Source: Ionaspis alba
Lineage: Eukaryota
DNA length: 60,500 bases
Assembly (NCBI GenBank): GCA_964255285.1
Contig: CAXUUL010000025.1
Span: 1-60,500, forward strand
Direction of reading: 5' to 3'
Part shown: one piece after another, positions 33,413 through 36,235 of the stretch
Numbering within the stretch: the stretch's first letter is position 1
Layout of the letters: each line of letters starts with the position of its first letter
Made by a program: the position numbers and the translations under genes
The notes under the pieces: generated by a model
What the model saw: the letters and a program-made list of their open reading frames with translations, nothing else
The model's database searches: none
Told to the model about the DNA's origin: nothing

Positions 33413-34110
33413 TGTAGTCAACGTGTCTTGAAAGAGTGAAGAATTGCAGAACAGAAAACTATTCTATGTATGTAAAGAGTGTAAAGAATGAAGAAAGCAT
33501 GGATTTAAAGTCATCATCCAAAGTCCCCAAGCTTGTTGATCGCCAACATGTTGTCCTGTTGGTAGTTGTGAGCTTCCTCAGCAAACTGTAGCTGCGCCGT
33601 CGATGGGCTTAGATGTCCCATCCCAAAATGGACTAGTGAGCAACATCCGAGGGCAAAATCCTTTGTCTTCGAGTCTCCTAAACATTTCTTATTGAGGCTT
33701 CATTGCGGTATTGATGTTCATGATCGATTCTTATTCGACCTAAGAGGCTGCAACCAATGAAACGGAGTGGCTACGAGGGACCTACCACGTTTTCAAGTGG
33801 AAAGAAATTTATGGCACGTTGTGGATTGGTGCTGAGTGCCCAAACATATGAGCAACACACAATACACGGCACGACCACGGAGCTTTCGTAGTTGTTGCAT
33901 TAGTTATGAAATCTAGTAATCTCGAAGTTTTTTAAGTCATTCTGATGGTTCACATCTATCCTCTATATCCAGACGGATGTTTCATTAATCGACCATGATC
34001 TATGCCAGTCTTTTTCGTCATTCGAATTCACACCTCTCAGCTCAAGCCGCAAAAAATATTTCCCACCCTGGTACCTAACTTTTATGAGCAAAAGCTCGGG
34101 TATAGAACAA

Positions 34111-34782
34111 TCACAAAGTGCTAATACCAGTTAGCACAGGAGGTTCATGGAAGAAGACAATTACCGACCCTAAGTAGTCCTCCTTGACACTACCAATAGC
34201 AAACATACTCCCAACATCACTCCTCGTACCAATGAGCTTGATTCGTAAATGCGTTCCTTTCTCAATAACTTGGTCACCGTTGTCAGTGTATTGCGGTGGC
34301 GTAGCATTTGGATCCCATTTAATATCAGACGGAATAAGCTTCAGACCTCATCAGTATTGTGGCTCATGGTAAACGATACTCGGATTACATACATGGTTTG
34401 AGACGAAAACAGGGAGAGGGCCGACGTCTGCAAATACTCCCATCCTGTTCACGGAGCTCACTATGGCATCGACCTATATGGCAAGTCCTTCAGCATATAA
34501 GAGGCACTGGAATGCTTCGAAAGATAGACAAACCGTTTCACCCTTGAAAGGTCTCCATACGACCGCCCGATAGTGTACCGTATATTCTGCAAGCGCGCTT
34601 CCTGGCATCACCTTGCCTTCTGAGATATCAAATGCGTCCATCACGCATATAATGTAGTATTGTCCAGTACAGGTACCCTCAACGTCCTCCAACAATTTGT
34701 TTGTTAGGCGCTCTTTGATGTGAGCCCCAAAGAATGATGGATGGAGCGTGATGACGCGTTCAAGTTCATAAAGAAAAAACAT
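34111..34782 (-). CDS. RPB7: RNA polymerase II subunit Rpb7
   Basis: MFFLYELERVITLHPSFFG..VEGTCTG..WRPFKGET|VDAIV..GPLPVFVSNH|LIPSDIKWDPNATPP..AIGSVKEDYLG|TL*. Confidence 0.97.
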
Positions 34783-34876
34783 TGTGTCGAAGGAGTGTAG
34801 AAGAAGAATTTCAACGGTCGTCCAACGGTTCCACCCGAACTATCGAATTATCACGGTCTCAGAACGAAAAGCAAGA

Positions 34877-35336
34877 CGATGTGACAAGCGCCGTCACCTC
34901 GAGACTGTTCCGAGTGCTCCTCAAGGTGAATTTCTTTTCTCTAGGCGTCCAAGATGTTCGGGAGGCTGCGAGCCTTGCCAGTCCTCGCAACAGCAACGAG
35001 TCCAACACTAGCAGCAGGGTCGCACTGGCAAAGGCAAAGTTCGAAAGAGAGAGTGAAAGCTTCGATCGAAGACCTTCACATCAGCAAAGTCCAAACGCAG
35101 TGAAGCGCTAGACAACGTACTGCAACGAACTTCACCAGGTCGAAGGAGTGGCAGCGGCGCAAAGAGTGTACCGGGGCTGCAAGGTCTCGGAGACCTATCG
35201 AAGAGCCTGCGCAGCGTTCCCCAGCACTCGAAGACCGTTAGACCACGTAAGGAGTGAGGTGGCGAGTTGACAACAGGTGTGTTTTGGGAGAGAGGTCTGG
35301 TCGTCGGTGCAACTGCGCGCAGGTGCTTGTGCCTAA
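34877..35336 (-). ncRNA. Candidate large structured RNA, box H/ACA-like architecture
   Basis: At least six hand-identified stems whose G-U pairs work only on the minus strand; AGAGAA (ANANNA) at 34942-34937, followed by a 10-bp hairpin and ACA at 34882-34880. Confidence 0.5.
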
Positions 35337-35528
35337 AAGTTCGCAAGGCTGAGATGTGCGATGAGGGATGTGGTAGCACATGTCATTTTCTGCGGAGCCT
35401 TTCGTAGGACAATGCGACCTTCACTCCGCTGGAAGTCACATCTAGCTGACCACCGAGTACCATGATTCTGAGATTTTGAGTATTTTGTCCTTGTATTGCT
35501 CAACTATCTCACAGAGGAGTGCTCAATT

Positions 35529-36235
35529 ATGGCACTGAACCTCGAGAAGCAGCTGCTGTTTGTAAGTTCATGCTCCGCAGCTCCGCTTGAGCTCTAGCTG
35601 ACACGGCTCTCCAGTATGGCTCCTACCATCACAATCCGGTAGGCCATGGTCAACGTCCTCCATTATCGTACAGAAGCTCATAGAGAATTTACCAGGTGAA
35701 CATAGCTATTCACGTAACCTGTGTCCCACTCCTACTCGCAACGGGAATTCTATTCGGCACCAATAGTCCAGCTCTAATACCACTCCCCTCATGGCTCACA
35801 ATTCCTAACCTTCCTCCAAACATCGGCACCATAGCCGCCATCGTCTATGGCACCCTGTACATACTCATGGAGCCCGTAGCCGGGGGATTTCTCGCCCCTC
35901 TCCTCCTTGCGTGGACAGCCTACGCGAAGCACCTCACAAGCACCTACGGGGCAACAGCAAACTACTGGGCCATAGGTGTGCACGTCGCCTCCTGGGTGGC
36001 TCAATTCATCGGGCACGGAGCTTTTGAGGGCCGAGCACCTGCCTTGCTGGATAATCTTACACAAGCTTTCTTTCTGGCGCCGTTCTTCGTGTGGATGGAG
36101 ATCCTGTTTTTCTTCGGTTACAGGCCGGGATTGAAGGGACGGCTTGACAAGGCTATTGAGAAGGAGATCGAGAAATATCAAAAGGGGAAGGAGCAGGGTA
36201 ATGGAACCGTTGCTAATGGGAAGATGAAGGGCTGA
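35529..36235 (+). CDS. MPO1: Mpo1/DUF962 family ER membrane dioxygenase
   Basis: MALNLEKQLLF|YGSYHHNP|VNIAIHVTCVP..SWVAQFIGHGAFEGRAPALLDNL; lysine-rich C-terminus. Confidence 0.85.

Follow-up and report, generated by a model that had tools for sequence, protein, structure and literature searches.

Our results indicate that the minus strand of positions 34783 to ~35260 in the window, by which we mean the whole analysed stretch of 60,500 nucleotides (60.5 kb), probably encodes a structured leader of the RPB7 mRNA that has not been described before, acts in cis, and controls splicing or translation of this message; we put the probability of this reading at roughly 0.65. It is supported by the conservation of the element, its strand, its position with respect to RPB7, the covariation within its stems, and a depletion of ATG triplets in the segment that leads to the RPB7 start codon. 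As we reconstruct it, the leader would be transcribed from the minus strand with a start near 35230-35260, and its first ~155 nt would consist of a ~70-nt hairpin, a pyrimidine-rich linker, and an intron of 47 nt, most of which is occupied by a second hairpin.

The DNA of the window resembles that of a filamentous fungus. The element is located between two protein-coding genes, the identities of which are indicated by Pfam (SHS2_Rpb7-N, E 3.2e-14; Mpo1-like, E 4.7e-10). A search against solved structures returned Rpb7 of RNA polymerase II as the best match (E 6e-28), compared to E 1e-6 for the corresponding subunit of Pol III. Exon 1 of RPB7 extends over 34531..34782 on the minus strand, as delimited by the Pfam and structure matches, and contigs from relatives skip 34341-34530, which is the first intron. 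The divergent neighbour, MPO1, has its first exon at 35529..35561 on the plus strand, where 11 codons are followed by GTAAGT, and a contig from a relative aligns over 35529-35585. MPO1 begins at 35529, not at 35867, and the spacer from ATG to ATG is therefore 34783-35528, or 746 nt. An earlier note on this DNA had proposed a structured minus-strand RNA of 460 nt at 34877-35336, which falls within this RPB7-MPO1 spacer. Its description of the surroundings is accurate, in that the RPB7 ATG (at 34782) is found 95 nt downstream of the proposed RNA, and the spacer contains no credible ORF, the only ones being of 47 and 49 aa, both of them without a Pfam match.

To place the spacer in a comparative context, we used 80 RPB7 loci obtained by scanning metagenome contigs with RPB7 exon 1, to which they show 67-89% amino-acid identity in the exon. 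A conserved module of ~155-180 nt, corresponding to 35252-35072 on the minus strand, was found upstream of RPB7 in 45 of these 80 fungal loci. A blastn comparison of the spacer with the same loci revealed a single common block, 35134-35072, in 22 of them, and alignment of the larger module demonstrated that this block is its 3' part. The module profile was positive in 43 of the 80 loci, always on the RPB7 strand and always in a single copy, giving 32 unique sequences including that of the window, and two further loci, L056 and the truncated L063, were recovered with a covariance model. The remaining loci comprised 26 that have at least 500 nt upstream of RPB7 and no detectable module, and nine that were too short for the comparison; a second round of profile searching on the 26 negative loci found no module in them. 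A profile built without the window sequence matched 35219-35073 on the minus strand with E 4.8e-19, while the next best match in the 60.5 kb had E 0.22. The covariance model built from a distant clade missed both the window and the L004/5/7 group at E values up to 1, and we place the window in the module family on the strength of the sequence profile.

The position of the module is tied to RPB7. The distance from the start of the model match to the RPB7 ATG is 345-500 nt in 41 of the 45 loci, 286 nt in L076 and L078, and 227 nt in L022, the contig of which contains the intron part only. MPO1 is located upstream of RPB7 in 51 of the 80 loci. It is inverted in nine (L001, L012-L017, L019 and L020; ~1630-2200 on the + strand), where the two genes are in tandem and not divergent, and in these nine loci the place and strand of the module are unchanged. 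The L004 and L011 groups have a tRNA gene between MPO1 and the module, with the position of the module kept, and the RPB7 promoter in these loci is therefore limited to less than ~190 nt. The module thus belongs to RPB7 and not to MPO1. The intervening tRNA gene itself contains an intron, and was identified at L011:2311-2400 (-) as tRNA-Ala with the anticodon AGC, and also at L004:2335-2432 (-).

Conservation is not uniform across the spacer. We compared the region with contigs from three DNA sequencing runs of a single study. Contigs from two other organisms align to it at 80% identity or more only over the RPB7 and MPO1 exons, with the exception of ~50 nt near 35077-35126 in one contig. The second choice of the earlier note, a structured regulatory leader of RPB7, is supported for the upstream third of the proposed stretch. 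The conserved module covers 35252-35072, and 35072-34783 has no alignable counterpart in the 80 loci.

At the 5' end of the module is a flank (35228..35252, minus strand) that the alignments show to be kept among closer relatives only, and transcription probably starts within or just upstream of it, near 35230-35260. This is followed by the leader hairpin (35159..35227, minus strand), an extended imperfect stem-loop of ~70 nt that was delimited by the profile, folding, covariation and an excess of G-U pairs. The long arm with an AGGTCT/AGACCT cap that had been noticed previously is the version of this conserved pre-RPB7 hairpin found in the present genome. When folded singly, 29 of 31 unique homologues form one long hairpin with an energy of -21 to -31 kcal/mol, the exceptions being L065 and L066. 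Helices P1 (GCA/UGC), P2 (GAC/GUC) and P5 (CUCU/AGAG) are common to most homologues, and helices P3 and P4 vary by lineage yet pair (GUCUC/GAGAU, CUUUG/CAGAG, GUCU/AGAC).

When RNAalifold was applied to plain MAFFT alignments, the two clades were shifted relative to each other in helix P3, so that only part of a consensus was recovered (19 and 15 pairs); we therefore drew a 24-pair structure by hand on an alignment of 14 sequences, built a covariance model (R1) from it, and aligned 38 matches to this model. In the R1 alignment, which is fitted to the model and contains related sequences, many of them near-duplicates, 84.4% of the cells were paired, compared to 31-50% when the partners were slid by 1-3 columns; changes on both sides were found in 13 of the 24 pairs (4-10 when slid), and the covariation score was 0.242 (0.072 or less when slid). 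None of 500 shuffles reached the observed value for three of five measures, while eight did so for the fourth and 29 for the fifth. Counted over 27 unique rows, with one spurious match (L011:1358-1418) left out, there were 475 Watson-Crick pairs, 46 G-U or U-G pairs, 14 A-C or C-A cells, and 83 other cells. The mean MFE z of the hairpin over 31 sequences was -2.38 in the sense orientation vs -1.17 in antisense, and the values for the window were -1.96 and -0.78, respectively. Thermodynamic support within the window itself is weak, with this hairpin z of -1.96 and a z of -0.51 for the whole 460-nt stretch. The size and shape of the hairpin match those of precursors of small, microRNA-like RNAs, but we consider such an identity highly improbable, in that conservation is concentrated in the base of the hairpin and the 3' linker rather than in one arm of the upper stem, and P3 and P4 vary freely by compensatory change.

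Downstream of the hairpin, the alignments delimit a single-stranded linker (35121..35158, minus strand) with a near-invariant pyrimidine block, CCAYTCYTT, which ends at the junction between the exon and the 5' splice site. This block is kept even in the intron-less loci L076 and L078. The linker is followed by a putative U2-type 5'UTR intron of 47 nt (35074..35120, minus strand), with GTACGT at 35120-35115, a branch-like CTGAT at 35084-35080, and AG at 35075-35074. Defining the signals as GTRNGT, a CTRAY at least 25 nt downstream of it, and an AG located 6-14 nt after the branch A, we found the complete U2-type set in 25 of the 31 unique homologues, with predicted intron lengths of 47-63 nt. 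The putative 5' splice site occurs as GTACGT, GTATGT, GTAGGT or GTGAGT among the homologues, and this variation looks like that of real 5' splice sites. In the clade of the window, the spacing from branch A to AG is just 7 nt, which is short. The conserved splice signals imply an upstream exon, and the linker and hairpin would be that exon.

Most of the putative intron is taken up by a conserved hairpin of 25 nt (35089..35113, minus strand), with an outer stem GUCUAG/UUGGAC, an inner stem CGC/GCG, and the loop UUCACU. The outer stem differs by lineage (GUCUAG/UUGGAC, GUCCAG/CUGGAC, GUUCA/UGAAC, CCCAG/CUGGG), and the inner stem and UUCACU loop are nearly invariant. The motif is present in one copy in the window and in one copy per locus. 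Not all loci retain this arrangement. L018, L019 and L020 (for example, L018:488-644) have ATACAT at the position of the 5' splice site, where others have GTAYGT, yet keep the intron hairpin, CTGAT and AG; L076:41-200 and L078:46-205 keep the leader hairpin and linker, with the intron and its hairpin absent and the leader ~130 nt shorter; and L039 has diverged at the intron position. Given these exceptions, control of splicing cannot be the sole function of the module.

The rest of the predicted leader, from exon 2 to the ATG (34783..35073, minus strand, 291 nt), is poorly conserved, cannot be aligned between clades, and contains no ATG. It holds the 35079-35053, 35035-34972 and 34929-34894 stems of the earlier note, along with its AGAGAA and ACA. 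In several loci of the more distant clade (L043, L062, L052, L058, L038, L041 and L076), a second purine-rich block, ATGGGGYTGGRGGAG..., is found ~215-220 nt after the start of the hairpin; it contains an upstream ATG, the frame that follows is not conserved in length, and the window has no clear counterpart. A separate candidate, a uORF in the first leader exon, was rejected as no ATG is present there.

To quantify the occurrence of ATG in the leader, we took 22 sequences, removed the putative intron, and counted triplets over the interval that begins with the hairpin and ends at the RPB7 ATG (7,828 nt in all). The spliced-leader segments contained 28 ATG triplets vs 82 predicted by dinucleotide shuffles, an approximately threefold depletion. 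The same segments held 130 CAT triplets, and segments of equal length further upstream (6,941 nt) held 116 ATG. In the leader of the window, no ATG was observed compared to 2.5 expected, and there were eight upstream. A strand-specific loss of ATG that begins at the hairpin is what would be expected of a 5'UTR that is scanned by ribosomes. Taken with the covariation and the G-U excess, the depletion points to an RNA that is made from the RPB7 strand and runs on into the RPB7 mRNA, which is why we interpret the module as a structured leader that acts in cis.

The extent of the ATG depletion also bears on the possibility of an independent noncoding RNA gene of ~100-110 nt, made up of the hairpin and its pyrimidine tail, just upstream of RPB7. 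The 3' end of such an RNA would be formed at the 5' splice site, either by first-step cleavage or by termination, and the RPB7 promoter would be located further downstream. Conservation is indeed strongest in a compact hairpin and its tail, the end of which coincides exactly with a 5' splice site, and the intron is small and structured to an unusual degree. An A at the first intron position has been reported to permit only the first step of splicing in some fungal telomerase RNAs, and one of the present lineages has such an A (ATACAT). There is also a documented precedent in the formation of the 3' end of fungal telomerase RNA by the spliceosome (PMC4299874), where the end of a conserved structured RNA is likewise set by a 5' splice site, with a short intron-like element downstream of it. 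However, ATG depletion spans the entire distance between the hairpin and the RPB7 start codon, one clade has extra conserved patches between the intron and the ATG, and conservation extends to the branch motif and the AG of the 3' splice site, as would be expected for complete splicing. In addition, we see no clear Sm-type site in the linker in the clade of the window, and the module matches no Rfam family. We consider an independent RNA gene quite unlikely. Telomerase RNA proper was rejected as a candidate on the grounds that the spacer is far too short; it also differs from the present locus in that no template is seen here, the 3' splice site has been kept among relatives, and the depletion of ATG reaches the RPB7 start.

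Alternatively, the block could act at the level of DNA. It would then consist of clustered binding sites for transcription factors, some of them palindromic, within the core promoter of RPB7, and the hairpins would be by-products of the palindromic sites. The location within a 746-nt divergent promoter region agrees with this, as does the conservation of sequence, and not of pairing alone, in the linker and in the inner stem and loop of the intron hairpin, and folding in the window alone is not significant. On the other hand, pairing has been maintained by changes on both sides of the stems, G-U outnumbers A-C by 46 to 14 on the RPB7 strand only, and the sense z is below the antisense z. Neither the splice-site-like variation at the 5' end of the intron nor a strand-specific depletion of ATG starting at the hairpin would be expected of DNA sites. 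A promoter element is thus an unlikely explanation in our view.

The interpretation first proposed for this locus was that of a large or orphan H/ACA snoRNA of ~460 nt, occupying 34877-35336 on the minus strand. The stems on which it was based exist, with the minus-strand MFE fold containing the 34929-34894 hairpin, the 35035-34972 arm, the 35079-35053 hairpin, and the long arm around ~35196-35182; a repeat search also pairs 34894-34903 with 34920-34929. The minus strand also folds better than the plus strand (-155.2 vs -147.6 kcal/mol), which fits the G-U pairs on the minus strand that the note had pointed out. The folding energy of the 460 nt is not beyond chance: compared to shuffled sequences, the minus strand has z -0.51, with 31 of 100 shuffles folding equally well, and the plus strand (-147.6 kcal/mol) has z +1.96. 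When the stretch was divided into sliding 120-nt segments (16 per strand), only 35023-35142 on the minus strand was outlying, with z -3.84 using 60 shuffles and -3.26 using 200. As background, 180 such segments elsewhere in the 60.5 kb had a mean z of 0.03 (sd 1.08, minimum -3.41), and three reached z of -3 or below. The intron hairpin falls in this sole low-z segment, and the 35132-35087 arm described earlier overlaps the conserved short intron. Thermodynamics alone is not decisive for an RNA in the spacer. A perfect 12-nt palindrome, CTTCGATCGAAG, is present at 35060-35071, just past the putative 3' splice site and at the tip of the 35079-35053 hairpin, and was not seen in relatives.

Canonical H/ACA RNAs have the layout hairpin-H box-hairpin-ACA, in which the hairpins contain an internal loop that serves as pseudouridylation pocket and the 3' stem is immediately followed by the ACA. 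The window resembles them in having many minus-strand stems, an ANANNA sequence (AGAGAA) followed by a hairpin on the same strand, and ACA triplets, one of which comes after that hairpin. However, the 3' hairpin (34929-34894) is an unbroken stem of 10 bp with a 16-nt loop and no pseudouridylation pocket, and the ACA (34882-34880) is located 11 nt past its base. The segment that bears the H box, hairpin and ACA (34941-34880) aligns with none of the 80 related loci, and it has indels between haplotype contigs of the probable source sample; these indels, at 34952, 34959 and 35010, fall in the proposed H-box region and in the 35035-34972 arm. Rfam 15 produced no match at gathering thresholds over the whole window, and none within 34877-35336 even at E values up to 10. 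The part of the locus that is conserved carries splice signals instead, as a leader exon and intron, and the whole stretch folds no better than its shuffles. We thus consider an H/ACA RNA extremely improbable and reject this reading. This case illustrates that a plausible H/ACA assignment, made from the stems and short boxes of one sequence, can be wrong yet point to a real RNA element.

Other known RNA classes were considered. A C/D box snoRNA was rejected, as CUGA is found only within the branch-like CTGAT, the alignments have no conserved C box, and the Rfam matches to C/D models have E >7 and are located outside the stretch. The TPP riboswitch, RNase P/MRP, SRP RNA and snRNAs were rejected from the alignments and Rfam results. 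Searches of 20 relatives against Rfam at gathering thresholds returned tRNAs only, and in two relatives searched at E values up to 10 the only match over the module was a 15.6-bit hit to an archaeal C/D model (E 0.23, opposite strand), which overlaps the first few bases of the module in L062.

Certain activities can be postulated for a structured RPB7 leader. That the module is transcribed and spliced, and that it has a regulatory effect, we infer. It may set the output of RPB7 post-transcriptionally. The intron hairpin separates the 5' splice site from the branch site in an intron of near-minimal size, and from this position it could decide whether the intron is removed; a stable leader hairpin could hinder the loading or scanning of ribosomes. 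The base of the leader hairpin, the linker and the loop of the intron hairpin, all of which are conserved in sequence, look like a candidate binding site for a trans-acting factor. Rpb7 is itself an RNA-binding protein. It is conceivable that the module acts as a sensor of the supply of the Pol II stalk (Rpb4/7), whereby Rpb7 or a partner would bind to the RPB7 pre-mRNA at the base of the hairpin, the linker and the intron loop, and would switch the intron between removal and retention; in a variant of this scheme, first-step spliceosomal cleavage would free the ~100-nt 5' exon as a stable small RNA. We offer the sensor as a speculative proposal with a low probability of being correct.

Control of this kind would have parallels in other fungal genes. 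In yeast, structured leaders or introns of RPL30, RPS14B and RPL22B control the splicing or translation of their own genes. The RPB7 module resembles these in that a housekeeping gene for an RNA-binding protein has a conserved RNA structure in its leader or at or next to its first 5' splice site, and in a location that permits cis control of both splicing and translation. It differs in that the gene encodes a Pol II stalk subunit and not a ribosomal protein, there is no relationship in sequence or in Rfam, and regulation in the present case is a prediction. To our knowledge, conserved structured leaders in fungi have been described mainly for ribosomal-protein genes and a few metabolic genes, and little has been established about how cells balance the amounts of RNA polymerase II subunits. 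Comparative genomics has also identified conserved structural RNAs in the UTRs and introns of fungal genes (PMC5640933, PMC8216456); the evidence in these surveys is of the same type as ours, namely conservation and covariation in the leaders and introns of fungal protein genes. Their main texts contain nothing relevant under RPB7, MPO1 or related names, and a full-text search of the literature returned no paper that links RPB7 to conserved RNA structure or autoregulation. A further point of comparison is the TPP riboswitch (Rfam RF00059; PMC5882874), which filamentous fungi have in introns of their 5' leaders and which is likewise a structured RNA in or beside a leader intron, the folding of which can decide the use of splice sites. 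Unlike the riboswitch, the module has no Rfam TPP match, is built from one long hairpin and a small one within the intron, shows no sign of a ligand pocket, and is attached to a gene that is not metabolic.

Judged from sequence comparison, the module is an addition to the conserved structured elements of leaders and introns, and it belongs to no Rfam 15 family. An element of this kind that is kept across many fungal lineages provides a concrete, testable handle on the post-transcriptional control of RPB7. If a sensor of stalk supply were to prove correct, it would provide the first example of an autoregulatory RNA element among the subunits of eukaryotic RNA polymerases.

The probable source run contains two contig versions of the sequence at two places in this region. 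At 34901-35042 the versions differ by six letters and five gap letters, with depths of 78.1 vs 50.8, and at 33949-34162 they differ by 13 letters and two gaps, with depths of 122.8 vs 40.1. The presence of paired versions at both places, with comparable depths, suggests that two haplotypes or two strains were present in the sample.
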